Positions 293 through 39,110 of a stretch of DNA of 64,000 nucleotides are shown here, piece by piece; positions within the stretch are counted from its first letter, which is position 1, and each line of letters opens with the position of its first letter. The notes under the pieces are model-generated. The model was not told the DNA's origin, did not search any database, and saw nothing but the letters and a program-made list of their open reading frames with translations. The stretch spans positions 9,552 to 73,551 of the forward strand of contig CACYTP010000012.1 of assembly GCA_902777385.1 (NCBI GenBank), in the 5' to 3' direction. The DNA is from an uncultured bacterium (GTDB taxonomy: Bacteria > Cyanobacteriota > Vampirovibrionia > Gastranaerophilales > Gastranaerophilaceae). A program made the position numbers and the translations under genes.

Positions 293-370
293 ATTATGAA
301 AATAGTTGTAAAATAATGAATATAATTCATATAATATGAAATAACTTCATTTTTGATTAACGGAGGATAT

Positions 371-1156
371 ATGAAAAAAGGATTTACTTTAGCAGAAGGT
401 GCTACGCACGTAGCTCAGTTTCCAAAGCCTAGTTGTGCTGCGTTTACCCTCGCAGAAGTCTTAATCACCCTTGGTATTATCGGAGTTGTTGCGGCTATGA
501 CTCTGCCAACGCTTATACAAAACTACAGAAAACACGAAGTCGAAACCAAACTGGCTAAATTTTATTCCGTTATGAACCAGGCAATTAAACTGTCAGAAGT
601 TGAAAACGGTGAAATGTCAGCATGGGGTGATATTCAAAGTGGATTTGAACAGGACGAAAATGGTAATAATGATTTATCTAAACCTCGAGCTGAAGCGTGG
701 CTTAAAAAATACATATTCCCATACCTTAGTGCAGTCGAAATAAATAAAATTCCAAATGCACAAAAATTTGAAGTATATTTTAAAGATGGCAGCCTTGCCT
801 TATTTGGAGCGGATAGTGTTGTTTATTATGTAAACAAAAATGCATATAAACTTAACGGAAACACAGAAGGAAAAGATGCATACAATAAAATAGATTTTGG
901 AACAAGGGCATTTACTTTTTTTATAAAACACGCTCATACATGTGAATATTCAACTATCTCGGAAAGCTCAAAATATTCATGCGATGATGCAGGATTACAA
1001 CCATATAAATGGGGTTGGGATGGCACGGAAGAACACTTGCGTAATCGCACAGATATAGGCTGTAATGCAAATGCGACAAATGAAGCTGCATATTGTACTG
1101 CATTAATCCAACTTTACGGCTGGAAGATACCAAAAGATTATCCGTTTAAGTTTTAG
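371..1156 (+). CDS. prepilin-type N-terminal cleavage/methylation domain protein (pilin-like paralog 1)
   Basis: GGAGGA SD 6 nt before the ATG at 371. N-terminus MKKGFTLAEGATHVAQFPKPSCAAFTLAEVLITLGIIGVVAAMTLPTLIQNY carries the class III signal (F+1, E+5, hydrophobic helix). C-terminus is Cys...GW...DYPF. Confidence 0.75.
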   Translation: MKKGFTLAEGATHVAQFPKPSCAAFTLAEVLITLGIIGVVAAMTLPTLIQNYRKHEVETKLAKFYSVMNQAIKLSEVENGEMSAWGDIQSGFEQDENGNNDLSKPRAEAWLKKYIFPYLSAVEINKIPNAQKFEVYFKDGSLALFGADSVVYYVNKNAYKLNGNTEGKDAYNKIDFGTRAFTFFIKHAHTCEYSTISESSKYSCDDAGLQPYKWGWDGTEEHLRNRTDIGCNANATNEAAYCTALIQLYGWKIPKDYPFKF

Positions 1157-2070: not shown

Positions 2071-3112
2071 TCAGATTTGCACGTTTTTTGTTATGAACAA
2101 CCGAAGAAACAAACGCCGCAACAATAAAACCTAACCCGATTAAACCTGTAATAACTTCCGGAACTTCTTTTACCGTTGAAACAAGCATTAACCCTGCTAA
2201 AGCACCGATTGCCCAGTGAGCACCATGTTCAAGATATAAAAACTGTGCCAAAGTTTTCTTTTCTACCAGCAAAATTGTAAGAGAACGAACAAACATTGCA
2301 CCGATTGAAAGACCTATTGTAATTATTATAATATCTTTACTCAATGCAAATGCACCCAGTACCCCGTCAAGAGAGAAGGATGCATCTATAAGTTCAAGAT
2401 AAATAAAGCTTATTAATCCCGTGCAAGCCAAAGATTTGCCTGTACTTGCAGCGGCACGCATTTCCTCGTGTTTTTCCAAGAAATGAGTAAATCCCTCAAT
2501 TAATAAATATGTAATAATACCGCTTATACCTGCTATCATAACAGAAACCTTCTGCTCAGCAGGAACAGCAGCCTGAGTTGCCAACAACATGAATAATGCA
2601 AGTACAATTTCTATTCCTTTTAAATGATCAAGGTGAGATAACGGCAATTCTATAAACTTTATCCAGTGAACAACTTTTTCGTGATTGAAAAAGTAATTAA
2701 GACATAACATAACAAGGAACATTCCGCCGAAAGTTACAATCGGTGCATGAGTCAGATGCAGATAATGTGCATACTGATCCGGATTTGTAGTCGCAATCTT
2801 AAACACCTCAAGCATACTGAGTTTTGCAAATATTGCAACAACCAGTATCGGGAATAAGAATCTCATACCGAACACCGCTATCGCAATACCCCATGTTATA
2901 AATCTGTGACGCCATTTTTCGCTCATCTTTTCTAATTTCATTGCATTGACTACAGCATTATCGAAAGATAAACTTACCTCAAGTATTCCCAACACAAGTG
3001 CAATAAAAGCACACTGTAAACCACTGCCGGAATGGACATGTTCACCCCATAAAAAGGCTCCTATCAAACCTGCAGCCGTAACTAAATATGAACCTAAAAA
3101 ATATTTTAGCAT
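2039..3112 (-). CDS. DUF475/TerC-like integral membrane protein
   Basis: Polytopic membrane protein with the LEVSLSFDNAVVNA motif seen in DUF475/TerC-type proteins. Confidence 0.5.
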   Translation of the reverse strand: MLKYFLGSYLVTAAGLIGAFLWGEHVHSGSGLQCAFIALVLGILEVSLSFDNAVVNAMKLEKMSEKWRHRFITWGIAIAVFGMRFLFPILVVAIFAKLSMLEVFKIATTNPDQYAHYLHLTHAPIVTFGGMFLVMLCLNYFFNHEKVVHWIKFIELPLSHLDHLKGIEIVLALFMLLATQAAVPAEQKVSVMIAGISGIITYLLIEGFTHFLEKHEEMRAAASTGKSLACTGLISFIYLELIDASFSLDGVLGAFALSKDIIIITIGLSIGAMFVRSLTILLVEKKTLAQFLYLEHGAHWAIGALAGLMLVSTVKEVPEVITGLIGLGFIVAAFVSSVVHNKKRANLIAEEEGNENA

Positions 3113-3256
3113 TATTAAACCCTCTCTACTTTGGTTATATTAAACCATATTCAGACATTTCTGACAATACAACGCCTGATTGAATATCAAAATATATTCA
3201 ATCAGTCCGCAAAATTTTTTATTTCATGGTATAATGATTTCACTAAGGAGATAATT

Positions 3257-3607: not shown

Positions 3608-4507
3608 ATGTTCGGGGTAATAAATATATATAAACCCAAAGGTATAACCTCTCACGACGTTGTAGGCATTGTAAGAAAAATACTTGGTATCAAACAAGTC
3701 GGACATACCGGAACTCTTGATCCGTTTGCAGAAGGGGTTTTACCGATTTGTGTCGGCAAAGCAACCAGACTGATTGAATATTTTGATGATGATAAAGAAT
3801 ATATTGCAACGGTACAATTCGGAACAGCTACAGAAACCTACGATACAGAAGGCAAAATAACAAAAACAAGTAATAAAAAAATTACTCAGACAGAAATTTT
3901 AGAAAATCTGAAATTTTTTAGCGGAGAAATAGAACAAATCCCTCCGATTTATTCTGCGATAAAAGTTAACGGCAAAAAATTGTACGAATATGCAAGAGAA
4001 GGCAAATCTGTTGATATAGAACCAAGAAAAGTTACTGTATATGAAATTGAGCTTGTTGGATTTGATAACATAAATCAAACCGCCGACATAAGAATAAAAT
4101 GTTCAAAAGGAACTTACATTCGCTCAATTGCAAATGATTTGGGAGAAAAATTGGGATGCTGCGGACACCTTATAAAACTTATACGTTCAAAAGCCGGCAA
4201 ATTCAACGTTGAAAATTCCGTACAATTACCTGCAAATATTAAAGAAGATAAAAAATATACAATAAAAGAAAATGCAAAAGAAATTCTGTGTAAAGCAATT
4301 CAAAACCCGACAGCAGCAATTTCTTTACCTCAGATGATTATTACAGACGCAGAATATGAGAAGATTTCACACGGAAATCCGATAAAAATTAACAATAAAA
4401 AATTTAAATGTGGTGATTTTTTAATTTTGGTTTATAATAATAATGTTGTTGCGACAGCTCAACAAAAAGAAGAAGAAATAAGAGTGAAAAAGGTGTTTAT
4501 ACAATGA
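3608..4507 (+). CDS. truB: tRNA pseudouridine(55) synthase
   Basis: GHTGTLDPFAEGVLPICVGKATR catalytic Asp motif. Canonical rbfA-truB gene order. Confidence 0.9.
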   Translation: MFGVINIYKPKGITSHDVVGIVRKILGIKQVGHTGTLDPFAEGVLPICVGKATRLIEYFDDDKEYIATVQFGTATETYDTEGKITKTSNKKITQTEILENLKFFSGEIEQIPPIYSAIKVNGKKLYEYAREGKSVDIEPRKVTVYEIELVGFDNINQTADIRIKCSKGTYIRSIANDLGEKLGCCGHLIKLIRSKAGKFNVENSVQLPANIKEDKKYTIKENAKEILCKAIQNPTAAISLPQMIITDAEYEKISHGNPIKINNKKFKCGDFLILVYNNNVVATAQQKEEEIRVKKVFIQ

Positions 4508-5364
4508 AGAAACTGGCTTTGATTTTAGGTTTAATGTTAACAATTAATACTGCTGCAAATGCAGGCACATACGGAATGACTTGTCCCGCTAATCCTTATT
4601 CACAATCAATAGGATTAAGCAATATTACGGGTATAAATTTTCTGTCCGAAAAAATTGCAAATGCCATAATTAAAAAAGCCATTCTAAAAGATTCAAAAGG
4701 GAAATACAAAGTTGACATGCAGTCGTACAACCTGAGTTCACTAAAACAAGGTATTTTCAAATCTCTTGAAATAACAGGTAAAGATACCGTAACTGACGGG
4801 GTTTATATTTCTAATATCAAACTTAAAACATTATGTGATTATAATTATATTGCTTTGGATAACAAGAATAAAACAGCCACATTCAAAGAAGATTTCCACA
4901 TGGCATACGCTTTGCAATTCACTGAAGACGATTTAATCAATACTATGCAGACAAACAGACAATATTTGGAAATGATTAGAAAAGCAAACAGCATAGGAAA
5001 TGCCTCAAAATTATTCAATATTGTATCTACTTCTGCAAAAATCAAAGACAATAAATTATATTACACTATGAAGGTCGCAATACCGCTTATTAAGAAAAGA
5101 CCTGAAATTGTAATTGAAACAGACATGAAAGCACGCAACGGGGAAATAGTTTTGAATGACTCAAAACTGGTAACTGATAGCTTTAAGCTTGATATGAGCA
5201 AGCTGGAAAAAATACTTAATTTTCTGAATCCTCTGGAATTTGCTATAGGTATTTTTGAAGAAAAACAAGCAGTATCAAAAGTCCAAGAAATAACTATTCA
5301 AAATAATACAGTTAATATTATAGGAACATTTACAATACCTAAAGATGTTGTTACTGAACAATAG
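4504..5364 (+). CDS. secreted protein, possibly DUF2993/LmeA-like lipid-binding
   Basis: Signal peptide MKKLALILGLMLTINTAANA. The beta-rich repeat pattern resembles DUF2993. ATGA overlap with truB. Confidence 0.35.
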   Translation: MKKLALILGLMLTINTAANAGTYGMTCPANPYSQSIGLSNITGINFLSEKIANAIIKKAILKDSKGKYKVDMQSYNLSSLKQGIFKSLEITGKDTVTDGVYISNIKLKTLCDYNYIALDNKNKTATFKEDFHMAYALQFTEDDLINTMQTNRQYLEMIRKANSIGNASKLFNIVSTSAKIKDNKLYYTMKVAIPLIKKRPEIVIETDMKARNGEIVLNDSKLVTDSFKLDMSKLEKILNFLNPLEFAIGIFEEKQAVSKVQEITIQNNTVNIIGTFTIPKDVVTEQ

Positions 5365-5382
5365 AGAAAGGGTTTACAAATC

Positions 5383-6000
5383 ATGAATAAACAACAGCAA
5401 TCGTTATTACTGGCACTTATAGGTCTTATTATTATAGCATTATCAATTTTCATCGGTATAAGAGTGCTTTCTCCGCTAATGACAGAGCCGCAAGAAAATC
5501 CGGGAGCTATTGCAGAAACACCGCAGGAACTTCCTAATGAAAATCCGGAAGCTAATCCTGAAGAGCCTGTCGCAAAAGAATATGTACCAATTGTATTTAT
5601 CGGTAAAAATTCTAACGGAGACGAGGTTTATAAAGTTGTAAAAAGAGAATACGATCAAAATATTGATGGCTCTAAATTAAGACACGCAATCAATTCACTT
5701 ATTCTCGGACCTAAACAGAATGAAAAAATGAGCGGAATATACTCGGAAGTTCCGACAAGCACAAACATATTACACATATATGATAATGAAGATAAAGTTA
5801 TTGTAGATTTGTCATCAGGATTTGCCTATGGCGGCGGCTCAGAGAGCATCTACAAAAGATTATTCCAGCTTATAAAAACTATTACAAGAAATACCGAAAA
5901 ACCTGCATATTTATATATTGACGGTAAGCAGGCAGATGTAATAGGCGGAGACGGAATAATGATTACACAACCGCTCAGTGAAAAGTCAATTGGTGAATAA
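5383..6000 (+). CDS. GerMN domain-containing membrane-anchored protein
   Basis: N-terminal TM helix, Pro/Glu-rich linker, then LILGP...SGIYSEVPTSTNIL...VIVDLSSGF, typical of the GerMN domain. Confidence 0.6.
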   Translation: MNKQQQSLLLALIGLIIIALSIFIGIRVLSPLMTEPQENPGAIAETPQELPNENPEANPEEPVAKEYVPIVFIGKNSNGDEVYKVVKREYDQNIDGSKLRHAINSLILGPKQNEKMSGIYSEVPTSTNILHIYDNEDKVIVDLSSGFAYGGGSESIYKRLFQLIKTITRNTEKPAYLYIDGKQADVIGGDGIMITQPLSEKSIGE

Positions 6001-6003
6001 AGA

Positions 6004-6270
6004 ATGGAAAAGGACTTAGACTACTATCTTAATCTTGATTGGACATTAATTGAAGGAGAGGATTTGGATTTTGAAGGGAAACCTTATCATTACATTATGA
6101 TAGACGAAATTCCAAGTTTCTGCTTCTGTTCTAAGTCAATTGAAAAAGCCAGAGAGAATTATAAAAAACAATTAAAACTGACTTTAACTGTCATGCTTGA
6201 AACGGGTGAACACATTACAGAACCCGGAGAAAATAATGACGAAACGGACTGGGAAAGTCTTTGCCCATAA
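6004..6270 (+). CDS. HicB-like / UPF0150 family small protein
   Basis: YHYIMIDEIPSFCFCSKSIEKARENYKKQLKLTLTVMLETGEHITEPG follows the HicB-antitoxin fold pattern. No HicA partner seen nearby. Confidence 0.4.
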   Translation: MEKDLDYYLNLDWTLIEGEDLDFEGKPYHYIMIDEIPSFCFCSKSIEKARENYKKQLKLTLTVMLETGEHITEPGENNDETDWESLCP

Positions 6271-6289
6271 AATAAGAGGTTAATGATTA

Positions 6290-6760
6290 ATGGAAGAAAA
6301 TACACAAGAAGTTACTGCCAATCTTACAGAAGACAATAATGACAAACAATCTGAATGCGGTTGCAAAAAAGTCCTAATGTGGATTTTAAAATCTCCGCAA
6401 AACCCGTATATACTTGGGATTTTATCCGTCATATTTTTGTATATGGTAAACTTTACTCCAATTGTTTTTACAACAGCGGCATTAATTTGGTTTTGTTACA
6501 ATAGAAAAATTATTGATTTTAAATCTTTAATAAAATTTTCCGCAATATACTCACTCGGACAAATGCTCGTTAATTCCTACATTATATATCAAACAGGATT
6601 TGTAGATATAACAGGATTACAGTATATTGCACTCAGAATGTTAGGCTTCTTCGTACTTTCATTTGTTTTGGGAAGTTTGATGTTCTATCTTGCCAACGGT
6701 ATTTTTTACATTGCATATAGGCTTTTAAGAAAAATTATGCAAACGGATAATCCTGAATAA
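6290..6760 (+). CDS. hypothetical polytopic membrane protein
   Basis: 156-aa ORF with about 4 hydrophobic helices. No motif recognised. Confidence 0.4.
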   Translation: MEENTQEVTANLTEDNNDKQSECGCKKVLMWILKSPQNPYILGILSVIFLYMVNFTPIVFTTAALIWFCYNRKIIDFKSLIKFSAIYSLGQMLVNSYIIYQTGFVDITGLQYIALRMLGFFVLSFVLGSLMFYLANGIFYIAYRLLRKIMQTDNPE

Positions 6761-8077: not shown

Positions 8078-8902
8078 TTACCACGGATAATCGCGGTCCA
8101 TCTGCCAGCCATCTCTCATAATTTTTGCTGAACAAGTATAACCGTCTGAATTTCTACCTTTGCCGCAACCGGCTCGTATATTGTTATTATTCCACAGAGT
8201 TACATCTTGAGCATCTGCACCATCTACATTAGAACTACCCGGGAAGAGCATCCAACCGCTGTTTCCCAATCCGTGTCCGTCATTTGTTCTAGAATATTTG
8301 AAATAAAAAAGGTCCTTTCCGAGTGTATTATAACCTGAATACGGTCCGTCAACATCAATATAAAAGACTCCTCTGTCATTACCGGTATAGGCATAAGCCA
8401 TCCAAAGTACGCAGGCACCGTTTGGCATCTGAGCCGACCAAGAATAAGTTGAGAAAGGATTGAGATCCGCACCCCTTAAATTTTTGTATGGACGATAAGG
8501 TTTTCCTTCATAACACATAACTTTATCGGCATCTGCAACACGTTCATACATTTTTGCACCCATTTTTTTAGGTACCAAGTGAAAACAGCTTTCTTGAGAA
8601 TAATCAAATTCCGTTCCTCCGTTATCACAAGACCACTTGTGCATAGGTAGCGTGTCAAACTCTGCTGATACAGCCTCTGCACCTGTCTGTAACTGTGAAA
8701 ACGTCTGTTTCAAACGATTTAATGCAACACCTTTTTGATAATTCTGAATTAAAGCAGGCAAAGTCATAGCAGCAACCACACCAATTATGCCGAGGGTGAT
8801 TAAGACTTCTGCAAGTGTAAAGGCGGCACGACGAGGCTTTACAGACTGAGCTACGTGCGTAGCACCTTCGGCAAGAGTAAAAGCGGCTTTCTTTGATGTC
8901 AT
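8078..8902 (-). CDS. prepilin-type N-terminal cleavage/methylation domain protein (pilin-like paralog 2)
   Basis: From the ATG at 8902: MTSKKAAFTLAEGATHVAQSVKPRRAAFTLAEVLITLGIIGVVAAMTLPALIQNYQK. C-terminus is CSAKIMRDGWQMDRDYPW. The ORF track extends it to 9343 through repeat elements (see findings). Confidence 0.7.
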   Translation of the reverse strand: MTSKKAAFTLAEGATHVAQSVKPRRAAFTLAEVLITLGIIGVVAAMTLPALIQNYQKGVALNRLKQTFSQLQTGAEAVSAEFDTLPMHKWSCDNGGTEFDYSQESCFHLVPKKMGAKMYERVADADKVMCYEGKPYRPYKNLRGADLNPFSTYSWSAQMPNGACVLWMAYAYTGNDRGVFYIDVDGPYSGYNTLGKDLFYFKYSRTNDGHGLGNSGWMLFPGSSNVDGADAQDVTLWNNNNIRAGCGKGRNSDGYTCSAKIMRDGWQMDRDYPW

Positions 8903-9040
8903 CACGAACTTTACAAAGCGAACCACCGCAACGAAGTGAGGATGAGTGAGCCTGTATGCAGAGCTGTTTCGGGATCTGGCCACCTTTACATAATTACGAC
9001 TTTCACTATATGCACTACCTAAAGAATCACATTGGCTAGA

Positions 9041-9059
9041 TGCTGAAACGAGTTCAGCA
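9041..9059. repeat. palindromic repeat unit TGCTGAA-N5-TTCAGCA
   Basis: Same stem as 50026..50043, with the 5-nt loop reverse-complemented (acgag vs ctcgt). Confidence 0.7.
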
Positions 9060-9115
9060 CGACATTTAATGGGTGTAGCACCCTCGGCTAGGGTAAAGGC
9101 GGCTTTCCTACCCAT

Positions 9116-9157
9116 GTCATTGCGAGGGAGCAAGTAGGCTTGCGACCGTGGCAATCC
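9116..9157. repeat. REP-like unit GTCATTGCGAG...GGCAATCC
   Basis: Shares both ends with 49157..49191. GC-rich imperfect palindrome in an AT-rich genome. Confidence 0.7.
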
Positions 9158-9284
9158 AGCCGGTTTTGCAATAACTGAGAAATTTTGCCTCGCTTTTTTA
9201 TTTATATTTCTGTAATCTAATGGCTGAATTACGTCGCAAATCAAACCTTTGATTTGCTCGTAATGACATGTGTCCGCATTAGCA

Positions 9285-9387
9285 AAATCTTGTAAATCCT
9301 TACTACGAGAGGATTTTACCCCCCTCCCTATGTTTAAATCCAATCATGATAACATCCTCCGTGGTTTTTGTACATTATCATTATAAC
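9285..9387 (-). repeat. 103-bp leader module, copy A (partner 50215..50317)
   Basis: 8 mismatches in 103 positions, counted by eye. On the minus strand it contains TATAAT, GGAGGA, ATG and the hairpin AAATCCT-N9-AGGATTT. Confidence 0.85.
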
Positions 9388-9604: not shown

Positions 9605-11077
9605 TTAAGCTGAGAATGTTTTGAAGGTATCTTGAGTATTCTTTTCAATAACTTTTGATACAGCTTCTTTTTCTGTTTGGATAGCTTTTTGTTCAGTATC
9701 CAATTGTTTCAATCTCAATTCAAGATTTTTATCTTCAGCTTGGATAATTTCAATCTTTGAATTAATATTTTCTACAGCTTGATCGTATAAATATTTATCA
9801 TATTCGTATTGATTCATAGCGTTGTTATATGCAGCCTGATCTGTAGATGTTTCAGTAGTAAGTGCATATTCAATGTATGTAGTAGAACCGTCATCATTTT
9901 GTTTTGGAATTGCAATTGAAATTAATCTTCCTGATGAATCTTTTTCGACTTTACAATTTTCAACGCCTTTGAATTCCGAAATCTTTTGTTCACTGCCGAT
10001 TGTATAGCAATTGATAGCTGACAAAGAAGCTTTTGTCTTTTCATCATATATTGCAGCACCTAAATTGCTCTTTGAATAGAAGTAAGGTTTCTTTGTGCCT
10101 GTAGTAGTATCAGTTACATATCTTACCAACCAGTCAGTATCACCGTATTTCTGTTTTAACAATTCAGCCCAAGCTCGTTCTTCTTTCAACATATTGTTAA
10201 TCTGAGTCTGAGAAAGTCCTTCAAATTCAGAACCAAGAGTAGCTGAAGTAGTTGTAATACTAGCAACTTCATCGTCTGACAAGTTATATCTTTCTGTTAC
10301 ATCTTTATAAACTTGTTTTTCATAACCGTTTCCTGCTGCATTTTTCTGAACCAAAGATATAGCATACATAGGATCTGTTTGACTTCCATCATATAAACAT
10401 ATAATTAAATCATCTTCAGAATATGCAGTTGCATTACCGTTCGCATCAGAGAAAGTACCGTCGGCATTCTTAAATACCTGCTGCATATTAGTAAAGTTAT
10501 TCGTATCCGGTGTATAATAATATTCAAAATTAGATATATCAGCCGCAGTACAAGCTTCCATAGTAGCAGTATCAGACTTTTTAGTCTTTTCTACATAATA
10601 CCCTTGAGCATCTTGCAGTACTGTATAAGTACCGTCCGCAAGAGTAATTGTACTTGCAACCTGAGTTGATACACCTGTAGGCAACTGACCTAAAGGCCTT
10701 AATGCTGCAGCACCTATTGCATAAGTATCATTAGGTTTTGCAGTCAATTGAGTTGCAACACTTGATGCCGCAGATACAACAGCATAATCATCCTGCCATT
10801 TTGACAAGTAACTTACTGTGTACATACCGTTTGATTGAGCAATCATAGATGTTACAGTATTTGTTAATGCACCATCTGAGAATGTGTACATCGTCTTAGT
10901 ATAAGCATCTACTGATGGCGGTGTTGGTACAACCATACCCAGCAAATCGTTATAGTAATTTGCAGATTCATTTGACAACAATGTACGTTGCTGATTGACT
11001 TGTTGACCTTCAAACTCAACGTTGTTTTGTCTGGCCGTTAGTCCTAAAAATCTTGCTTGTGATGCTGCCATTCCCAT
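9605..11077 (-). CDS. hypothetical protein with helical termini and a Thr/Ser/Ala-rich centre
   Basis: 490-aa ORF with AAAGGAAAC upstream. N-terminus MGMAASQARFLGLTARQNNVEFEGQQVNQQRTLL. C-terminal coiled coil IEIIQAEDKNLELRLKQLDTEQKAIQTEKEAV. No family recognised. Confidence 0.6.
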   Translation of the reverse strand: MGMAASQARFLGLTARQNNVEFEGQQVNQQRTLLSNESANYYNDLLGMVVPTPPSVDAYTKTMYTFSDGALTNTVTSMIAQSNGMYTVSYLSKWQDDYAVVSAASSVATQLTAKPNDTYAIGAAALRPLGQLPTGVSTQVASTITLADGTYTVLQDAQGYYVEKTKKSDTATMEACTAADISNFEYYYTPDTNNFTNMQQVFKNADGTFSDANGNATAYSEDDLIICLYDGSQTDPMYAISLVQKNAAGNGYEKQVYKDVTERYNLSDDEVASITTTSATLGSEFEGLSQTQINNMLKEERAWAELLKQKYGDTDWLVRYVTDTTTGTKKPYFYSKSNLGAAIYDEKTKASLSAINCYTIGSEQKISEFKGVENCKVEKDSSGRLISIAIPKQNDDGSTTYIEYALTTETSTDQAAYNNAMNQYEYDKYLYDQAVENINSKIEIIQAEDKNLELRLKQLDTEQKAIQTEKEAVSKVIEKNTQDTFKTFSA

Positions 11078-11173: not shown

Positions 11174-12700
11174 CTATGCGTAACTCCACCATTTCCAGCT
11201 TGGTTCAAGAGCAACATCCTTTGCATCATAATATGTTGCAATATGATCTTTTATAGATTGTTTTTCATCAGCACCGTTATAATACCCTTCACTGACACTA
11301 TCAAGATAGTCTTCACCTACCTGATATGCAACATGTTCACCCCATCTAGGCAAATCAGAAGGATATAAATACGCTGTAGCATGCGTAATTTCGTGAACCA
11401 TAACCTGAACCATCAAATACCAAGTTGTACTAGGATTTTTTGCCAGATTTTCGTCAAGAAACATACCTGCATCGCTCGGATCATCTTTTACCCAATCTCC
11501 GGTAGTTGTATTTTGATAATATACATATTGACCTAAAGTAGTACCTGCGCCTGAGCTTCCTGCATTTAGATTGGCATAAGAAATTTTATTATTTGCAATT
11601 AATCTGTCTAAAGCTTTTGTCTGGTCAGTTAACCCTGCAGCCTTAAAATAATCTCTCGTCATTTCGATTAAAAATTCTTTTTTCTGAGAAAGAGTCATTG
11701 TACTAAATTTTGACTGAATTTCTGCAGCCCAAGTTTCAACTTTACTTTCATAATTACTGAAACTGCCGATTTCATTACCAATCAACTCTTTTATTTCCTG
11801 ATATGACAAAATATCATTATTATCTTTATCAACAACGGTAAATGCTTTATTCAACAAACCAAAGAAATAACCGTGAGATGCTTCCCAGTCATCCTTTTGT
11901 GTAAGTTTCCACAACTGGCTTGCCGTAATACCTGTATCTTTAGTAATACTGCTATCCTGTGAATGCAGCCATTCAAATAAGCTGTCGGTGTCATCAAATT
12001 CATCTAAATAAGAAGTCTTATTTGTATTATCACCGTCATCATCGGTACGAGTACCGCTTTCATCATCAGTACCGCCTGTACCAGAAGTACCACCGGTACC
12101 GCCTGTTGTTGAACCACTATCATCATCGTCAGTTCCGTCTGTACCTGAAGTACCACCTGTACCAGTACCTGAACCTGTACCGCCTGTACCTGAAGTGCCG
12201 CCCGTACCGCCGGTTGTTGAACCGTTTTCATCATCGTCAGTTCCGCCTGCACCAGTTCCTGAACCAGTACCGCCTGTACCGGAAGTTCCGCCCGTGCCTG
12301 TTCCTGAACCTGTACCACCCGTACCGGAAGTTCCACCTGCACCTGAACCCCCGTTACCTGAACTGTGGTGAAGATTATATATCATCTGCTTAATTTTATT
12401 TTCCTGAGCCTTTGACAAGGTACTAACCGTAATAGAAAGTCCTGTTCTAACAGCATTATCAATACCCGAATTTTTAATATTAGTCTGTTTTGCAGATACA
12501 CCATCAATAGCAATCTGGTTCGCAATTTCATAGATAGACTTATTGCCGTTTTCAGCAATCAGTTTATCTATAACGCTTTCTTCAGCACCCTCTGCCTGAT
12601 ATTCAACAATTTCATTTAACAGTCTTTGCTTTGAAGAAATCCCTTCTATTTGCTTTTGCTGACTTACAATCCTTAGAAGAGGGGTATTGTTAATATCCAT
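11174..12700 (-). CDS. hypothetical Gly/Thr/Ser-repeat protein with an EF-hand loop and HExxH motif (putative metallopeptidase)
   Basis: AAGGAG SD. GGTSGTGGTGSGTG repeats at residues ~113-226. DKDNNDILSYQE EF-hand loop (11795..11830). HEITH (11381..11395). Confidence 0.6.
   Translation of the reverse strand: MDINNTPLLRIVSQQKQIEGISSKQRLLNEIVEYQAEGAEESVIDKLIAENGNKSIYEIANQIAIDGVSAKQTNIKNSGIDNAVRTGLSITVSTLSKAQENKIKQMIYNLHHSSGNGGSGAGGTSGTGGTGSGTGTGGTSGTGGTGSGTGAGGTDDDENGSTTGGTGGTSGTGGTGSGTGTGGTSGTDGTDDDDSGSTTGGTGGTSGTGGTDDESGTRTDDDGDNTNKTSYLDEFDDTDSLFEWLHSQDSSITKDTGITASQLWKLTQKDDWEASHGYFFGLLNKAFTVVDKDNNDILSYQEIKELIGNEIGSFSNYESKVETWAAEIQSKFSTMTLSQKKEFLIEMTRDYFKAAGLTDQTKALDRLIANNKISYANLNAGSSGAGTTLGQYVYYQNTTTGDWVKDDPSDAGMFLDENLAKNPSTTWYLMVQVMVHEITHATAYLYPSDLPRWGEHVAYQVGEDYLDSVSEGYYNGADEKQSIKDHIATYYDAKDVALEPSWKWWSYA
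12023..12364 (-). repeat. degenerate in-frame tandem repeat encoding (GGTSGTGGTGSGTG...DDD) x3
   Basis: Three decaying repeat blocks, each ending in an acidic DDDxxGSTT stretch. They also generate shadow ORFs on both strands. Confidence 0.8.
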
Positions 12701-12954: not shown

Positions 12955-13233
12955 TTATCCTAAGAATGTTATATGCTGATCCGGAACATTGCCTTTACCT
13001 TGTGGTTGTTCAGATGAGGAAACTACATATTTATAAGTTCTTGCAATTTTCTTTATCACTGTAGATATAGGATTGTTAGACGGCATTGAATCATTCAAAT
13101 TACCTTCAAATTCTCTACGAGCATTAGGCTTTTGCAAAGCAAGTATAGCCATATTCGGAGTAACATTGTTACCGTCACCGAATGAAATGTACTGTTTAGA
13201 TGTATTAAATTTTACAGGATTTATTGTTATCAT
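12955..13233 (-). CDS. small hypothetical protein (92 aa)
   Basis: GGAGG 7 nt before the ATG at 13233. Own promoter at 13295..13323 and a hairpin + T-run terminator near 12810..12840. Starts MITINPVKFNT. Confidence 0.45.
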   Translation of the reverse strand: MITINPVKFNTSKQYISFGDGNNVTPNMAILALQKPNARREFEGNLNDSMPSNNPISTVIKKIARTYKYVVSSSEQPQGKGNVPDQHITFLG

Positions 13234-13294
13234 TTTCTGCCTCCTCTCTTGAGGTTTTATTAAGTGTGTTTTGAACACTTCATCTAACACTTTT

Positions 13295-13323: not shown

Positions 13324-13569
13324 CCCCTACTATAAAGTTTTGTTAAGATACCTATAAAGCAAGTATATTCTATATTGTCGATAAAGTGGCAAATATACAC
13401 TTATTCAACCGAATGGTTGGGATTTAAGTATATCCAATCGGGTAATTTTTAAATTTTGCCATTTTTTTACCAAAATCAAAGAACTACCCAATAGGGTAAT
13501 TGTAAAAATGACACTTATTCGGTTAAATATAAATAATCTTTTTCATACTTCCAGCTATTCTTAATTCCA

Positions 13570-13598
13570 ATGAGCCTCATATAGAGGCTCTTTTTTTT
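13570..13598. terminator. hairpin GAGCCTC-ATATA-GAGGCTC with T-run (end of the 16288..13624 operon)
   Basis: 7-bp perfect stem. The T8 run is on the plus side and an A-run on the minus side, so it is strongest in the plus orientation. It lies directly downstream of the 146-aa gene. Confidence 0.5.
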
Positions 13599-13623: not shown

Positions 13624-14064
13624 TCAGGCAATATAACTTAGTATAGCTCCGCCAATTTCTTCATTAGGATCAAAAAATGGGGATTTTACAGGATTTAGCG
13701 AATTATTTATCAGCATACTAATCAAAGGTCCAAAAGCGTCAGGAACTTGAGTTTTTCTGTAAATACCTGCCAAAAATGTTTGGATATTAGGCGATTGTGT
13801 CCTATTAAACCTTGATAAAGCAGGATACATTTTATCAATATTTTTAACTCCGTTTTCCAGCATTCTGTCAAGTATATAAAGAGTTTCAACAATCTGTTCT
13901 TCATTTTGAGAAAACTTTAAGACTTCATTCAGGTAAGGTAAAACCTGCTCTCCCTGCCGGACAAATTTATCAACCTTTTGCTGATTAAAACAACAGTAAT
14001 TTCTGCCGGATGTCGGCATGTTCACACTATAGGTATTTACACAAAAATTTACAGGCTGAATCAT
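13624..14064 (-). CDS. hypothetical protein, HEAT/ARM-like helical (146 aa)
   Basis: Third gene of the riboswitch-led operon. Helical repeats LPYLNEVLKFSQNEEQIVETLYILDRMLENG. Starts MIQPVNFCVNT. Confidence 0.5.
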   Translation of the reverse strand: MIQPVNFCVNTYSVNMPTSGRNYCCFNQQKVDKFVRQGEQVLPYLNEVLKFSQNEEQIVETLYILDRMLENGVKNIDKMYPALSRFNRTQSPNIQTFLAGIYRKTQVPDAFGPLISMLINNSLNPVKSPFFDPNEEIGGAILSYIA

Positions 14065-14075
14065 AACTATAATCC

Positions 14076-15581
14076 TTATGAATAAACGAACGGAGGACCG
14101 TTTTTAATCTCAAACAAAATATTTTCAGCTACGGTTTTGAGCTGTTCTTTCGGTTTCCCTTCATCAACCTGCTTGTAAAACTCATCTACAAGAGGTTTGA
14201 TAGCCGCATCTTTTTTGGCTTTAAAATTCCTAAGCTCTGTAGATACAAGCCTTTGCTGCAAATCCAGTTCTGTCTGAGCGTTAATTTTTTTAACCTGAAC
14301 TTCTTTAATTGCATCCCCAATGACTTTTCCGCCATAACTTACACCTGCCAGAGCGGTCGTACCAAAGAACAATTGTTGGAATTGTTTGTTATCAGGTTCT
14401 ATCAACAAGTTATAGAAAAATGCTCTATAGTCATCAACGAACGAAGAGAATGAAGGTTTTTGAGTGCCGTCACCGCCAATATTTGGGTTAACTTTTACCG
14501 TAGAAGTGTTTATTTTTTGCATAACCATTTCAACAAAAGCTTTTTTATCTTTTTTCTTCCAGTTAGTCATTTCAACTATTTTTTCAACATCCTGACGTTT
14601 TGCATTGATAAATTGGAACATATTTTCCATATATTCCTGCTTAAAACGTTTATTTCCACGGGCTTTTGCAATATACTCCAAATCTTTTTTTGTTTTTTCA
14701 ACAAATTTTTTAGTTTCACTATGTCCTGCCCTCAGATTTTTCATAGAATACAAGGACAAACCTATAATAGAAGCTAACGTTGCACCGCCAAGTGCAAAAT
14801 ATCTTAGCATATCTTTTTTGTTATCTTTATCCGCACCCGTAGCTTCTGAAGTAAATGTCAAATCTTTTGAACTTTTGAACATGCCAAACGGTTGTTCATT
14901 ATATTCTGAAGGAGCAAGATATGATGAAAACATCTTAGTTTTTTCAGAAAGAGAATTTCTTATAATCTGCATTTTTCCGCTAAACGACTGTGTTTCAACA
15001 GCAATCAACTGTTCCTGAAGATTTTTTTGAATATCTGCTTCCCGTTTTTTAACCCAAACTTCCTTAAATCCGTCCAAAAATGTTTTACCCATAAATGCAG
15101 TAGCCGTCAGCGTCAACACACCCAAACCGGCACGAATTGTTTTTTTATTCGGGTTTTGAACCATTTGAACAATTGCCTGTACAGTTTCTTCATTTATAGA
15201 TATATTACGGGTAAAGGATGTAATCCATTTTTCCTTTGCAATTTCGTTTGTAATTTTGGCATTTCTTTTTACAAAGTACGAAAGCCCTGCAAACACACCC
15301 ATAACACCTACAGCCAATCCGCTTATTGGAAGCAGACTTCTCTGGGGATTTGTTTTGTTCTCATTTAATTGTTTCGGTAACTTTACATTATCTGAAATAA
15401 TTAAAGTATCACGGCTTGAATCAAGCGATAGAGCGTTTGGAGAATACAAATCATCATTATCTTTAATAAAATTATTGACGATAACGCCCTCTTTTGTTTT
15501 GTAGTTATTGACTTTCTGAGAGTTTGTTAAATTCCTCAGCTGACGCCTTGTTTCTCCGTCATTGAATTGTATCGTATTCAT
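14076..15581 (-). CDS. hypothetical 4-TM membrane protein with internal duplication
   Basis: Two halves each end in a TM helix followed by FLDGFKEVWVKKREADIQKNLQEQLIAVE or VIGDAIKEVQVKKINAQTELDLQQRLVSTE. No family recognised. Confidence 0.6.
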   Translation of the reverse strand: MNTIQFNDGETRRQLRNLTNSQKVNNYKTKEGVIVNNFIKDNDDLYSPNALSLDSSRDTLIISDNVKLPKQLNENKTNPQRSLLPISGLAVGVMGVFAGLSYFVKRNAKITNEIAKEKWITSFTRNISINEETVQAIVQMVQNPNKKTIRAGLGVLTLTATAFMGKTFLDGFKEVWVKKREADIQKNLQEQLIAVETQSFSGKMQIIRNSLSEKTKMFSSYLAPSEYNEQPFGMFKSSKDLTFTSEATGADKDNKKDMLRYFALGGATLASIIGLSLYSMKNLRAGHSETKKFVEKTKKDLEYIAKARGNKRFKQEYMENMFQFINAKRQDVEKIVEMTNWKKKDKKAFVEMVMQKINTSTVKVNPNIGGDGTQKPSFSSFVDDYRAFFYNLLIEPDNKQFQQLFFGTTALAGVSYGGKVIGDAIKEVQVKKINAQTELDLQQRLVSTELRNFKAKKDAAIKPLVDEFYKQVDEGKPKEQLKTVAENILFEIKNGPPFVYS

Positions 15582-15592
15582 ACCGCAAATCC

Positions 15593-16288
15593 TTAATCTG
15601 TTTCTTTGGAATCATTTTCACCCTTAATTTTTTTGTATAAATCGTGGATAAAGGTTTTAAGTCTAAATGCTTTCTTTGTCTCATCGACCTGCTTGTCCTC
15701 GTTTTGAGCATCCTGAGGATCAAATATTGAGAAAAGAGATTTTATTTTCTTCTTGAACTCGTTTAACGGTTCTCCGATTTTTTTGGCTAAAGCGGCTTTA
15801 ACTTCGCCATAAACAGCAGCAAGTTTATCGGAAATTTCAACAAATTTTTGTGATATTGACTGTGCTATATTTTGCATAGCGGCAGGAATATTTTTTATTA
15901 AATTAATCGTACCGCCTACAATATTATTTAACACAAAACTTACGGGTTTTGCAATAATCGGCGGAAAATTTTGAGAAAACATGCCTGAGATATCTGCCAA
16001 TTTCTGAGAAATATTCATCATATTCTTTTCGAACAGAGCAATTCGCTGAGCGAAATTAACTGCATCCTGCTGATGTTGAGCCTTTGCAGCTTTTTGAGCT
16101 CTTAACATAGCACCTATAGCTGCACACTCGTTCCAACTCATTTCTCCCGGTTTTGCGGTATGATCTGCCTTTCTCATACTACCGGCACCACCCATGCCAT
16201 TACAAATCGGACATGCACCCAACGGGGCTCCGTGCGGACACGTTCCTGCTTTCATTATGCTTGATTGTTGCATCACCGCTGATGGCAT
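15593..16288 (-). CDS. hypothetical protein with N-terminal CPHGxPxGxCPxC knuckle and long amphipathic helices
   Basis: 231-aa ORF immediately after the riboswitch-like leader. Contains CPHGAPLGACPICNGMGG, then Ala/Lys/Gln-rich helices. Confidence 0.6.
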   Translation of the reverse strand: MPSAVMQQSSIMKAGTCPHGAPLGACPICNGMGGAGSMRKADHTAKPGEMSWNECAAIGAMLRAQKAAKAQHQQDAVNFAQRIALFEKNMMNISQKLADISGMFSQNFPPIIAKPVSFVLNNIVGGTINLIKNIPAAMQNIAQSISQKFVEISDKLAAVYGEVKAALAKKIGEPLNEFKKKIKSLFSIFDPQDAQNEDKQVDETKKAFRLKTFIHDLYKKIKGENDSKETD

Positions 16289-16289
16289 T

Positions 16290-16456
16290 AAAAAATCCTC
16301 TTTCTGAACTTAAGAGGACAATCAAAGAACTTTATACAAACTTTTCCATATCGCTCGTAGAAACAGTTTTCTTTGAGTGTTCCGACTTCCCTATATTATT
16401 ACGGGTACACGGTTGCGGCTACAGTCGGGGATTTGCACCCCGTTTCCTCTTAACGC
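16290..16456 (-). promoter_or_regulatory. cobalamin-riboswitch-like 5' leader with SD-sequestering terminator hairpin
   Basis: Minus strand reads GAGGAAACGGGGTGCAAATCCCCGACTGTAGCCGCAACCGTGTACCCGTAATAATATAGGGAAGTCGGAACAC. It ends in the hairpin TCCTCTT-N9-AAGAGGA (16296..16318) plus a U6 run 1 nt before the ATG. Confidence 0.6.
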
Positions 16457-16461
16457 TACTA

Positions 16462-16490
16462 ATACTAAGATAACATGTACAACATGTCAA
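16462..16490 (-). promoter_or_regulatory. sigma70-like promoter TTGACA-17-TAGTAT driving the leader
   Basis: Minus strand has TTGACA (16490..16485), a 17-nt spacer and TAGTAT (16467..16462). Embedded in a region with two ACATGT palindromes. Confidence 0.55.
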
Positions 16491-16543
16491 CAATATGTTA
16501 TGTTTATTTAAGTTACATAATTTATCCATGATAAAATAATGCT

Positions 16544-17413
16544 ATGAGCTTTTCCGAAAAATATCAAAACATATATAATACGGTTTCTGAGGATATTGAA
16601 AGAGTAAAAAAAGAAGTCTTGCTTGAACTGAAGAATTCTTTTGAGTTAACTTCCGATTTGGAACAGTTATTTAACTCTCCATCAAAACACATAAGAGCTG
16701 CACTAAGTCTTTTATATTTAAAAGCAAACAATATTGAAGCAGACGAAAATCAAATAAAATTTCAGGCAATAATAGAACTTATACACAACGGTTCTTTAAT
16801 CCACGATGATATAATTGACAATTCCGATATCCGCAGAAACCATACAACACTCAATGCCTCCCATGGAAATCACTTGTCAGTAATAGCAGGAGATCTTGTA
16901 CTTTCGTTCGCACTAAAAAAAATAGCTGAATTAAATTCAGGTACAGTTTTAAAATTGGTATCCGACACAATAACAAGAATGTGCGAGGGAGAAATTCATC
17001 AATATTATTCAAAATATAAAATCCCGACAGAAAAGGAGTATATTACCAAAACCTATAACAAAACAGGTACACTGTTTGAAACAGCAATAAAAGGAGCTGC
17101 AATACTTTCAGGTAATACCGACAATATAAAAAACGCAGAATTATTCGGAAAATATTTTGGAATAGCATTTCAAATAAGAGATGATATTAAAAATATAGAA
17201 AACAACCAACCCGATAGTGATATAAAAAATGGGATTTACACCGCAGCCGTAATATATTCAAATAATCCGGATAATCCGTCGGAAGGTATTGAAAAAGCAA
17301 AAGCTTTATTGGATAATTATGTAAGAAAAGCTGAAAATACAATTTCTGATATAAAAAAAAACAAATATAAATCAGCTATTATTGAATTATTGGAGCTAAT
17401 CAATCATGAGTGA
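16544..17413 (+). CDS. polyprenyl diphosphate synthase
   Basis: LIHDDIIDNSDIRRN (first DDxxD) and FQIRDDIKN (second Asp-rich motif). Confidence 0.85.
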   Translation: MSFSEKYQNIYNTVSEDIERVKKEVLLELKNSFELTSDLEQLFNSPSKHIRAALSLLYLKANNIEADENQIKFQAIIELIHNGSLIHDDIIDNSDIRRNHTTLNASHGNHLSVIAGDLVLSFALKKIAELNSGTVLKLVSDTITRMCEGEIHQYYSKYKIPTEKEYITKTYNKTGTLFETAIKGAAILSGNTDNIKNAELFGKYFGIAFQIRDDIKNIENNQPDSDIKNGIYTAAVIYSNNPDNPSEGIEKAKALLDNYVRKAENTISDIKKNKYKSAIIELLELINHE

Positions 17414-23011: not shown

Positions 23012-23827
23012 ATGAGAGAATTTGATTTTTACATAGTACCAACACCTATCGGAAATCTCGGAGATATTACAAACAGAGCAATTGACGTACTTAAATCCGT
23101 GGATATCATTGCGTGTGAAGACAGTCGCAACACCCAAAAGCTTTTAAACCATTTTTCAATTGGGACAAAATGTATTTCATATCATAAATTTAACGAAAAA
23201 GAGCGTGTATCGCAGTTTATAAAGCTTATCAAAGAAGGGAAAAAGATTGCATTAGTATCTGATGCAGGAACTCCCTTGTTTTGCGATCCCGGAGCAATTC
23301 TTGTTGAAGAATTAAAGAAAGAAGATATTTCTGTTACGGCACTCCCCGGAGCAAACGCCGTTATTACTTTTATATCTCAAATTCCAAGAGACAGCGAAGA
23401 ATTTGCTTTCGTTGGTTTTTTACCTAAATCCAAAAATCAGATAATAGAATTATTTGAAAAATACAAAACTACAGACCTGATATTCTATGAATCTCCTAAC
23501 AGACTCTTGGAAACACTTAAAGTAATAAAAGATTATGATTCTGACAGAACAGTATCTGTCGGCAGGGAACTAACAAAAATATTTGAAGAAGTAATAACTA
23601 AAAAAACAGAAAACATGCTTGAGCATTTTTCTCAAACCGGAATTAAAGGTGAAATTGTCGTAATGCTGCACAAAAGTACATCTTCAGACCATATAAAAAA
23701 TTATGAAGATAAAATAAGAAAACTAAAAAACAAAAAATATTCTGATAAAGACATCTCCGTAATACTTTCAACCATATATAACATTAATAAAAATGAGGTT
23801 TACGGATATCTACAAAAAACGAAGTAA
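23012..23827 (+). CDS. rsmI: 16S rRNA (cytidine1402-2'-O)-methyltransferase
   Basis: VPTPIGNLGDITNRAIDVLKSVDIIACEDSRNTQKLL and LVSDAGTPLFCDPG motifs. Confidence 0.85.
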   Translation: MREFDFYIVPTPIGNLGDITNRAIDVLKSVDIIACEDSRNTQKLLNHFSIGTKCISYHKFNEKERVSQFIKLIKEGKKIALVSDAGTPLFCDPGAILVEELKKEDISVTALPGANAVITFISQIPRDSEEFAFVGFLPKSKNQIIELFEKYKTTDLIFYESPNRLLETLKVIKDYDSDRTVSVGRELTKIFEEVITKKTENMLEHFSQTGIKGEIVVMLHKSTSSDHIKNYEDKIRKLKNKKYSDKDISVILSTIYNINKNEVYGYLQKTK

Positions 23828-27699: not shown

Positions 27700-29178
27700 A
27701 TGTATAAAAACAACAAAATGCAATATGTAATTAAGACTTGCTCCAGTGAAAATCCGCAAGACTTACAAAATCTGTTGAACGAAATGTCTATGAATGGCTG
27801 GGAATTGTACAGCCTTAACGAAGTAGAAACTGATGACGGATTTAAATATAATTGTATTTTTATGTCGGAAAATGCAGCTTATGATGATGAAAGTATTGGA
27901 GATAGAATAAATATTACATCTTTTAAGAGTCAAATGGAAAAAATGCTTTCTCCGGAATTAACTCCTTATGAAAACTGTATTGATATCCAATCAAAAATAT
28001 CAAATCAACAGAAGAAAATTGCAAAAATAAAATCAGAATTAGAGGGGGAAGCACCTGCATCTGTTAATCGTAAAAAACTTAATGACAAAATATCCGCAGG
28101 ATTAAAAGAATTAGACGAATTAAAGAAAAAGCTTGCAAAAGCCACTTCGCCTGATATTATGTTTTCAAGATTAAAAGAAGACAAATTTTCCATTAATCTG
28201 AGTGAAGAACTCTTGGATTATGTTGATTCGGAAAAAGATTTTTCGGAAGATGATTTAGTAGCATCAACCGTAAAGTCCAGACTAAAGTTGACGGATGAAT
28301 ACGGCTATGTTATGCCGCAGTTGGTATTTAACGAAGACCAGACACTAAATCCTTATGAATTTTCTATAAAAGTCAGAGGGTATGAAGTACACAAATCTTG
28401 TGTATATCCTGCTTATTCCATGTTTTTTGCAGATGACCTGCATCTTGAAAAAATGCCAAAAAATGCAATTAAAGACATTGATACAATAACAGGTAAAAAA
28501 ATTGTATGGTTAGAAAAATCGCAAACAAAAGATTTCTGGGAAAAAGGTATTTCAGGTTCTGAATATATTACAAGAATGCTTGAATTTTACGCAATCAAAT
28601 ATGCTGACGAGCTTATTGATTATGCAGAAATTGAAAAATACATAGATGTAGTAGAAAAGGTTAATCCGTTTCTTGTCGAAAACATTATTCCTGACTATGT
28701 AGCCTTGTCAGACTTGAAATTCATACTTACAAGTTTAATTAAGGAAAGAATTTCAGTAAAAAATATTGTATATATATTTGAAAAACTTAATGACTATGCT
28801 GATGAATGTCCAAAATCCGAGTTACTGAAAAAGCTAAGACTTGCAATGTCAAAAACTATATGCAGCAAATATATAAATCAAGACGGAGTAATCGCAGTAT
28901 TTGATTTAAGCGAAAAAACCTTAGAGGAATTCGCACCAAATTATGAAGATGATGATTCAAGTATTATAACAATAGACGGTACGTTTGCAGAGAAACTGGC
29001 AGCAAAACTCACTAAAAAGGCTAAACATCTGGGAATTTCATCTCCAATATTAGTTGCACCGTTAGAATTCAGACAGCTGTTTTATACACTGCTTTCAAAT
29101 TATATGAACAATATTACGGTTCTTTCTATGGAAGAGCTTGGCTGCAATTTCAGAATAGAAACGGTTGCAGAGATTTAA
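27700..29178 (+). CDS. soluble DUF4177-like + coiled-coil + FlhA/FHIPEP cytoplasmic-domain-like protein
   Basis: N-terminal NEMSMNGWELYSL (DUF4177-like). The C-terminal half has YGYVMPQLVFNEDQTLNPYEFSIKVRGYEV and ALSDLKFILTSLIKERISVKNIVYIFEKLND, resembling FlhA-C. No TM domain. Confidence 0.5.
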   Translation: MYKNNKMQYVIKTCSSENPQDLQNLLNEMSMNGWELYSLNEVETDDGFKYNCIFMSENAAYDDESIGDRINITSFKSQMEKMLSPELTPYENCIDIQSKISNQQKKIAKIKSELEGEAPASVNRKKLNDKISAGLKELDELKKKLAKATSPDIMFSRLKEDKFSINLSEELLDYVDSEKDFSEDDLVASTVKSRLKLTDEYGYVMPQLVFNEDQTLNPYEFSIKVRGYEVHKSCVYPAYSMFFADDLHLEKMPKNAIKDIDTITGKKIVWLEKSQTKDFWEKGISGSEYITRMLEFYAIKYADELIDYAEIEKYIDVVEKVNPFLVENIIPDYVALSDLKFILTSLIKERISVKNIVYIFEKLNDYADECPKSELLKKLRLAMSKTICSKYINQDGVIAVFDLSEKTLEEFAPNYEDDDSSIITIDGTFAEKLAAKLTKKAKHLGISSPILVAPLEFRQLFYTLLSNYMNNITVLSMEELGCNFRIETVAEI

Positions 29179-38587: not shown

Positions 38588-38663
38588 TGGTGGGCGATAC
38601 AAGACTCGAACTTGTGACCCTCTGAATGTCGTTCAGATGCGCTACCAACTGCGCCAATCGCCC
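38588..38663 (-). tRNA. tRNA-Val (anticodon GAC), CCA encoded
   Basis: Manual cloverleaf: GGGCGAT/TG/GCGC-AGTTGGTA-GCGC/A/TCTGA-ACGACAT-TCAGA/GGGTC/ACAAG-TTCGAGT-CTTGT/ATCGCCC-ACCA. Position 33 is C, not U. Confidence 0.8.
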
Positions 38664-38955: not shown

Positions 38956-38988
38956 ATTTTTATTAATACCCCTCTATAAAACTAAAAA

Positions 38989-39060
38989 AGGCGACACCCA
39001 GATTCGAACTGGGGGATAAGAGCTTTGCAGGCTCCTGCCTTACCACTTGGCCATGTCGCC
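38989..39060 (-). tRNA. tRNA-Cys (anticodon GCA), no encoded CCA
   Basis: Manual cloverleaf: GGCGACA/TG/GCC-AAGTGGTAA-GGC/A/GGAGC-CTGCAAA-GCTCT/TATCC/CCCAG-TTCGAAT-CTGGG/TGTCGCC + U73 discriminator. Confidence 0.85.
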
Positions 39061-39110
39061 TCACCTCGTCCATTATAATACGAAACACATACCGCAATGT
39101 CAACCCTATT

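Follow-up and report, generated by a model that had tools for sequence, protein, structure and literature searches.

A probable class-II cobalamin riboswitch in front of an uncharacterised three-gene operon of Gastranaerophilales

Cobalamin riboswitches stand in front of genes for corrinoid uptake, salvage or synthesis, or for substitutes of B12-dependent enzymes. More than once they have led the way to new B12 biology: such leaders first drew attention to several B12 transporters, BtuM and CbrT among them, and to BtuG, which binds B12 at the cell surface. The Gastranaerophilales, a gut and rumen lineage living in humans, livestock and rodents, have to our knowledge never been cultured, and our literature search returned nothing on how Melainabacteria take up B12 or on B12 riboswitches in them.

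Class-II cobalamin riboswitches (Rfam RF01689, AdoCbl-II, in clan CL00101), with env8 as the paradigm, are built around a four-way junction of helices P3-P6 with an L4 T-loop hairpin, and have conserved J3/4 GGAAA and J6/3 strands, a short P6 and regulation through a kissing loop between L5 and L13 (PMC5028336, PMC6158498). A P1 helix and a J1/3 T-loop docking on J6/3 are typical of the class but missing in some members (PMC6158498). The leader described here resembles the paradigm in the junction, the L4 hairpin, both joining strands, the short P6 and the kissing loop. In contrast to it, the leader is predicted from its promoter to have neither a P1 helix nor a J1/3 T-loop, its P13 does not contain the Shine-Dalgarno (SD) sequence, a separate anti-SD/SD hairpin with a U-tract following instead, and in the clade of our sequence there is an extra hairpin in P6. 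Compared by description, the class-II riboswitch of Enterococcus faecalis (cited in PMC6158498) likewise lacks a J1/3-J6/3 tertiary contact, whereas organism, targets and expression platform are different here. With class-I riboswitches (RF00174), such as those of Escherichia coli btuB and Thermoanaerobacter tengcongensis, the leader has in common the core, the kissing loop and accessory structure on P6, but its P6 addition is a single small hairpin, absent from most orthologues, and the family fits RF01689. On the side of the regulated genes, a parallel is found in the B12 riboswitch of Mycobacterium tuberculosis ppe2, which also precedes genes without an evident B12 role in an operon of uncertain function (PMC11260477), although the genes are unrelated and the riboswitch architecture and the lineage are others.

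The DNA analysed here is a stretch of 64 kb, referred to below as the window. On its minus strand a leader (16490..16286), which we scored against Rfam and against orthologous leaders, precedes three genes that encode proteins of 231, 501 and 146 residues (g231, g501 and g146). We put at roughly 85% the probability that this leader is a functional cobalamin riboswitch of the class-II/AdoCbl-II type, most likely shutting the three-gene operon off when B12 is abundant. By homology the RNA itself is a further class-II cobalamin riboswitch, and what is new is its predicted regulon.

At Rfam gathering thresholds no cobalamin model matched in the 64-kb window, the only matches being two tRNAs, tRNA-Val(GAC) at 38588-38663 and tRNA-Cys(GCA) at 38988-39061, both on the minus strand. 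A permissive scan of positions 16200-16600 (401 nt) gave AdoCbl-II as its one meaningful match, at 30.7 bits (E=2.2e-5), below the gathering score of 36.5. The alignment to RF01689 is full length, with model positions 1-81 lying on 16464..16370, and it shows non-canonical P1 pairs together with insertions of 8 and 15 nt at the short P6 loop of the model. The insertions are due to a hairpin inserted in P6, and this hairpin together with the missing P1 plausibly explains the sub-threshold score; the P1 pairs are non-canonical in the Rfam alignments of orthologous leaders too. The initial annotation had proposed a cobalamin-riboswitch-like leader at this position, and had named the lack of a cobalamin hit above threshold as a reason to abandon it. 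Formally the window falls on that side, a result which is overturned by the orthologous leaders and by covariation.

From among the homologues of g231 we fetched 80 species-representative loci, and nhmmer found the leader of the window upstream of g231 in every one of them. Seventeen of the 20 orthologous leaders that were scanned reached the Rfam gathering score, 16 as AdoCbl-II at 37-51 bits and one as RF00174. For L002, a close relative, RF00174 is the best model (32.0 bits vs 31.5). A covariance model, R1, was then built from 66 leaders. It matches the window leader over its full length at 127 bits, all 80 species-level loci over their full length and, among the closest 80 metagenome loci, all 69 that have enough upstream DNA. 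The proposed leader is thus supported by the orthologues above threshold as well as by a covarying structure that includes the kissing loop, and homologous loci keep it in genomes and metagenomes alike.

The aptamer occupies 16375..16451 of the minus strand, as delimited by the RF01689 match, R1 and covariation. It begins with AAGAGGA (16451-16445), which includes the P3 5' strand GAG (16449-16447); the P3 3' strand is CUC (16377-16375). P4 pairs 16442-16438 with 16430-16426 around an L4 of UGCAAAU, J4/5 is AC (16425-16424), P5 pairs 16423-16421 with 16416-16414 around an L5 of AGCC (16420-16417), and P6 pairs 16412-16410 with 16384-16382, followed by a J6/3 of AACA. The regulatory hairpin P13 (16323..16375, minus strand) has a lower stem of 16375-16369 with 16329-16323 and an upper stem of UUUCU (16363-16359) with GGAAA (16347-16343), closed by the conserved loop L13, ACGAGCGAUAU (16358-16348), in which G16354 and C16353 pair with C16418 and G16419 of L5. 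The sequence quoted as the aptamer in the initial annotation (16453-16378), the hairpin behind it, the U6 run and the ATG are all seen in the letters of the minus strand as described there.

In the model-based alignment 93.1% of the cells are paired, vs 83.5% in shuffles and 36-64% with slid partners, and in the same model-based alignment 22 of the 32 pairs show changes on both sides. Compensatory changes are many in P4 and in both stems of P13; P5 and P6 are invariant, and P3, P5 and P6 are 99-100% paired. The P3-P6 four-way junction is recognisable from J3/4 GGAAA, the 7-nt L4, GCCGCA and J6/3, together with the covarying P4. The L5-L13 kissing loop is 91% paired, vs 8-71% in slid controls, and its variable pair is U-A in 34 leaders and A-U in 21. 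In the window it consists of two Watson-Crick pairs, the third pair being an A.G mismatch.

It had also been proposed that the B12 box pairs with an upstream CCGACU. The inner two or three pairs of this CCGACU:AGUCGG pairing stand, as a contact of J4/5 (R-C) with the last two bases of L6 (G-Y) in which pair 43-83 covaries (G-C in 40 leaders, A-U in 20). The next pair outward is A.C in 58 of the 66 sequences, the outermost bases being part of P4 and P6. A full helix of 6 bp was hence rejected in favour of a tertiary contact of 2-3 bp. GGGAAG, earlier read as an element of the conserved core, is instead the 3' arm of the clade-specific P6 insertion. This insertion (16389..16405, minus strand) is a hairpin of CCC (16405-16403), an 11-nt loop and GGG (16391-16389), and was found only in the window and in L001-L005, six species in all, where its stem covaries as CCC/GGG, CCAC/GUGG, CCGC/GCGG, CCGCA/UGCGG and CCGUAA/UUACGG.

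A separate P6 insertion of about 60 nt is present in L055 (3789-4003) and L057 (1322-1535). It is independent of the hairpin in the window's clade, and therefore P6 has been expanded more than once.

The sub-threshold Rfam score, the P6 insertion and the A.G mismatch in the kissing loop could together be taken to mean that the copy in the window is a decaying relic and that the operon is constitutive in this organism. We consider this very improbable. The window leader retains every position that is invariant across the 66 leaders and matches R1 over its full length; the P6 insertion is a covarying hairpin common to six species, one of which (L004) passes Rfam at 42 bits with the same insertion; and the L13 form of the clade, GCGAU(A/U)U, is kept in the window and at least in L001, L002, L004, L005, L006 and L009. 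The P6 accessory region is moreover known to be highly variable (PMC9600662).

Upstream of the aptamer lies a predicted promoter (16462..16490, minus strand) with a -35 box TTGACA at 16490-16485, a 17-nt spacer and a -10 box TAGTAT at 16467-16462. Both boxes are present as the initial annotation had them, but the match by itself is not significant, since a promoter scan with shuffled sequence as control found 32 such sites vs 33 expected by chance. The promoter gains its credibility because the two boxes are kept at a fixed distance in the orthologues: of 81 orthologous leaders, 57 have TTGACA or TTGACT as their -35 box, and the distance from the end of the -10 box to GAGGAAA is 7-12 nt in 63 of the 81. 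With this consensus promoter transcription should start 0-6 nt 5' of P3, which leaves no space for P1 or J1/3. The aptamer is thus predicted, from the consensus promoter only, to do without a P1 helix and J1/3. For RNA biology the leader would be a compact, P1-less example of class II in which the 5' strand of the aptamer duplicates the SD.

The expression platform is a putative terminator and SD-sequestering hairpin (16290..16318, minus strand), identified from its sequence and conservation. It is formed by the anti-SD UCCUCUU (16318-16312), a 9-nt loop (16311-16303) and the SD arm AAGAGGA (16302-16296), and is followed by U6 (16295-16290); a single A separates U6 from the g231 start codon, ATG at 16288-16286. 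The window therefore has the layout of an intrinsic terminator, with a 7-bp stem, a 9-nt loop and U6, and the 3' arm AAGAGGA is indeed the sole SD-like sequence 5' of the ATG, as first noted. At least six contiguous anti-SD/SD pairs followed by U5-6 and AUG occur in 73 of 76 distinct leaders, and the U-tract columns are invariant or almost so. The suggestion that the platform could act on both termination and translation is upheld in so far as this layout is conserved, the action itself being predicted.

The SD arm recurs in the aptamer 5' strand AAGAGGA, which holds the P3 5' strand and the beginning of J3/4. In 73 of 76 leaders the aptamer 5' AGAGGA offers the anti-SD a second pairing of 5 bp or more, which gives two mutually exclusive states with a median energy difference of 1.4 kcal/mol (-42.8 vs -42.3 kcal/mol in the window). 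In L170, from a divergent branch of the family, P3, SD, anti-SD and aptamer 5' strand have changed jointly, to AAG/CUU and AAGGAA/UUCCUU/AAGGAA. These observations suggest a B12-off switch working on termination and translation, the structure being known by comparison and the switching logic deduced from it. When B12 is bound, P3, the core and the kissing loop would be locked, and the anti-SD would close on the SD, forming an intrinsic terminator and masking the ribosome-binding site. When B12 is absent, the 3-bp P3 would open and the aptamer 5' AAGAGGA would take the anti-SD, so that no terminator would form and the SD would be free. Duplication of the SD in the 5' strand thus suggests a simple strand-exchange design that links ligand binding to termination and translation. 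The anti-terminator pairing may also follow inevitably from the presence of two purine-rich GAGGA motifs, and since its two partners hardly vary within the main branch, it offers little covariation. The base of P13 captures the P3 3' strand completely in just 17 of 78 leaders, and such capture was rejected as a universal feature of the switch because it was only partly borne out.

A reading in which the switch is translational only, the hairpin hiding the ribosome-binding site and the U-tract being an A/U-rich spacer, seems to us rather unlikely, while deserving more weight than the other alternatives. The paradigm env8 controls translation through its kissing loop (PMC5028336, PMC6158498). 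In L069 (2298-2420) and L080 (3859-3991) there is no anti-SD/SD hairpin and the 3' arm of P13 adjoins the SD directly, so that their predicted platform is simpler and works on translation alone, as in the classical class-II layout. With no more than 3 G-C pairs and a loop of 9 nt, the hairpin of the window escaped a terminator scan. Against these points, the U5-6 after the stem is (nearly) invariant across species while the spacer sequence otherwise varies freely. Predicted terminator platforms were present in 37 of 38 functional cobalamin riboswitches in reporter assays (PMC9600662), and the two modes are compatible with each other.

The opposite polarity, in which B12 binding would activate the operon, has a precedent in a reported activating corrinoid riboswitch (PMC10327014). 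It is scarcely credible here: no sequence is able to pair with the anti-SD solely in the bound state, and the sole alternative partner of the anti-SD is the aptamer 5' strand, which is sequestered once the aptamer folds. A B12-off switch on termination and translation remains our preferred reading.

The unit leader-g231-g501-g146 is conserved as such, with g231 and g501 in all 80 loci and g146 in 78. Across the loci g231 and g501 typically overlap by 11 nt and g146 starts 8-18 nt after g501. In order to reach more divergent relatives we queried again with P0288, the most divergent g501 relative at 25% identity. Ten divergent loci were fetched, of which L161/L162 and L163/L164 are duplicate pairs, leaving eight distinct ones. 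This branch also belongs to the Gastranaerophilales, and its loci have a g231-like protein overlapping a g501-like one, often together with a g146 homologue (53% identity in L168-L170). An AdoCbl-II riboswitch lies directly upstream in six of the eight distinct loci, passing Rfam at 41.8-54.4 bits; the riboswitch is absent from the remaining two (L163/L164 and L169). The link between riboswitch and operon hence persists down to 25-30% protein identity, and the attachment of a B12 switch to this clade-specific, uncharacterised module is both ancient and nearly universal.

In L163 (identical to L164) the g231-like/g501-like pair without riboswitch spans 4304-6527, and a gene for a phage-type integrase (2240-3127) lies two genes upstream of it. 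Its genome may carry the main, riboswitch-controlled operon as well, in which case the pair would be a paralogue.

Seven loci related to the window, from other genomes and metagenome contigs, have a second AdoCbl-II riboswitch on the opposite strand, in front of nrdD-nrdG: L062 (3642-3754), L065 (2077-2231), L075 (3639-3758), L101 (1008-1122), L112 (425-559), L114 and L117 (both 2447-2581), all on the minus strand. In some loci the two B12 switches stand back to back in one intergenic region, and both leaders of L075 reach the Rfam gathering score. The nrdD product matches Pfam NRDD at 686 bits. The pair nrdD-nrdG encodes the anaerobic ribonucleotide reductase and its activase, a classic target of B12 riboswitches. 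Repression of a B12-independent isozyme is textbook cobalamin riboswitch logic (PMC9600662, for metE). The switch before nrdDG therefore indicates that bacteria of this clade use B12, and the shared switch type indicates that the g231 operon is co-regulated with a bona fide B12-starvation gene. As with the B12 riboswitches of nrdDG and metE, the switch would repress a function needed only when B12 is scarce; unlike in those cases, g231, g501 and g146 are not recognisable isozymes of B12-dependent enzymes.

This bears on the question of whether the aptamer might bind something other than the B12 cofactors of the cell, for instance a corrinoid precursor or an unrelated molecule, which would account for so unusual a regulon. 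By sequence the regulated genes show no relation to B12, and the RNA is predicted to have neither P1 nor J1/3, the latter being a known determinant of selectivity (PMC6158498). However, the same type of aptamer controls nrdDG in the seven related loci, following classic B12 logic, and the core nucleotides fit the AdoCbl-II consensus over its full length, and we regard a different ligand as improbable. With B12 as the preferred ligand, the operon would belong, judged by its regulation, to a B12-starvation response together with nrdDG. No B12 transporter or B12-dependent enzyme was found elsewhere in the 64-kb window. The TP_methylase at 23012-23827 was considered as a corrin enzyme and set aside, as its size and domain make an RsmI-type rRNA methylase more likely.

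The first gene of the operon, g231 (15593..16288, minus strand), encodes a protein that has no transmembrane segment and in which Lys-rich helices come after an N-terminal C17-x-H19-x6-C26-x2-C29 knuckle. It has 1712 homologues in Gastranaerophilaceae/Melainabacteria assemblies, none of them named. The C-x-H-x6-C-x2-C knuckle is invariant and its CPICNGMG fits CxxCxGxG; we predict a zinc-knuckle helical protein. The second gene, g501 (14076..15581, minus strand), encodes a basic membrane protein of 501 residues (net charge +20). It has one strong hydrophobic segment and three weaker ones, and from each of them extends a helix of 50-77 residues. The sequence and its alignment suggest an internal duplication, and the C-terminal NGPPFVYS does not vary even at 25-30% identity. 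An exhaustive profile search of 1.84 billion protein representatives gave 230 clusters for g501, a closed family. The last gene, g146 (13624..14064, minus strand), encodes a soluble protein of 146 residues with a conserved domain of about 125 residues.

None of these three proteins, nor the g490 protein encoded further downstream, has a match in Pfam or NCBIfam or relatives in PDB profile searches; hhalign found no relationship between g231 and g501, and with g501 as query Foldseek returned nothing from PDB beyond coiled-coil noise (best E 0.16). AF2 models of g231 (pLDDT 45) and g501 (pLDDT 56) were too poor for a fold assignment, which was given up. The three operon proteins are unlike known B12 proteins or typical transporters, in agreement with the original remark that nothing downstream can be recognised as linked to B12. 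Collectively they look like a basic, coiled-coil-rich, membrane-associated complex, a clade-specific module by its sequence relationships. Because the riboswitch is kept in front of them across the lineage, these three 'hypothetical' proteins are strong candidates for a B12-starvation function. We see about even chances that g231-g501-g146 form an unrecognised, Melainabacteria-specific B12-linked system, either for corrinoid capture or uptake or as a B12-sparing membrane complex induced together with nrdDG. If this is so, their tight and ancient association with the riboswitch would offer a direct handle on the B12 physiology of an uncultured gut lineage.

The likely end of the operon is a hairpin, AATTACCC-TATT-GGGTAGTT (13501-13482), followed by CTTTGATTTT (13475..13501 in all, minus strand). 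After it comes a strong promoter-like site for the next gene (13323-13295). Across species g490 follows g146 in 56 of the 80 loci, about 119 nt away, with a terminator-like hairpin between them in 9 of 51; in the window two other genes lie between the operon and g490. Whether g490 is co-transcribed with the operon is uncertain.

A further hairpin, GAGCCTC-N5-GAGGCTC (13573-13591), is located just past g146 and is flanked by A8 on one side; its layout is that of a plus-strand terminator, and no plus-strand gene converges there. The N-terminal motif of g146 is similar to that of g111 (12955-13290, minus strand), both being of the form M-x-I-(Q/N)-P-V-x-F, with MIQPVNF in g146 and MITINPVKF at an internal Met of g111. 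The protein of g490 (9605-11077, minus strand) has invariant helical N- and C-terminal ends and a hypervariable, indel-rich middle, a layout that resembles filament subunits such as flagellins, and it has no detectable relatives. Next to it, g508 (11174-12700, minus strand) encodes a very acidic protein (net charge -37) that shows weak similarity to an EF-hand and, C-terminally, a HEITH (HExxH) motif; at 12135-12343, tandem repeats with unit lengths of 45 and 90 nt encode Gly/Thr-rich low-complexity sequence.

Elsewhere in the window, the match of an ORF at 27700-29178 (plus strand) to FlhA/FHIPEP is confined to the cytoplasmic, C-terminal half (profile positions 310-653), and the ORF may be left over from flagellar export. 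Incomplete sets of flagellar genes have been described in Gastranaerophilales (PMC4040986). Pilin-like proteins with N-terminal methylation motifs are encoded at 353-1156 (plus strand), which also matches DUF6613, and at 8078-9343 (minus strand); in the latter the methylation motif lies at residues 171-194, and the listed ORF start is therefore probably too far upstream. Among the metagenome loci, L081 (3501-5003 of contig Ga0247611_10015790) has a g501 that is 99% identical to that of the window, and on this identity its JGI sample contains the same organism or a very close strain.
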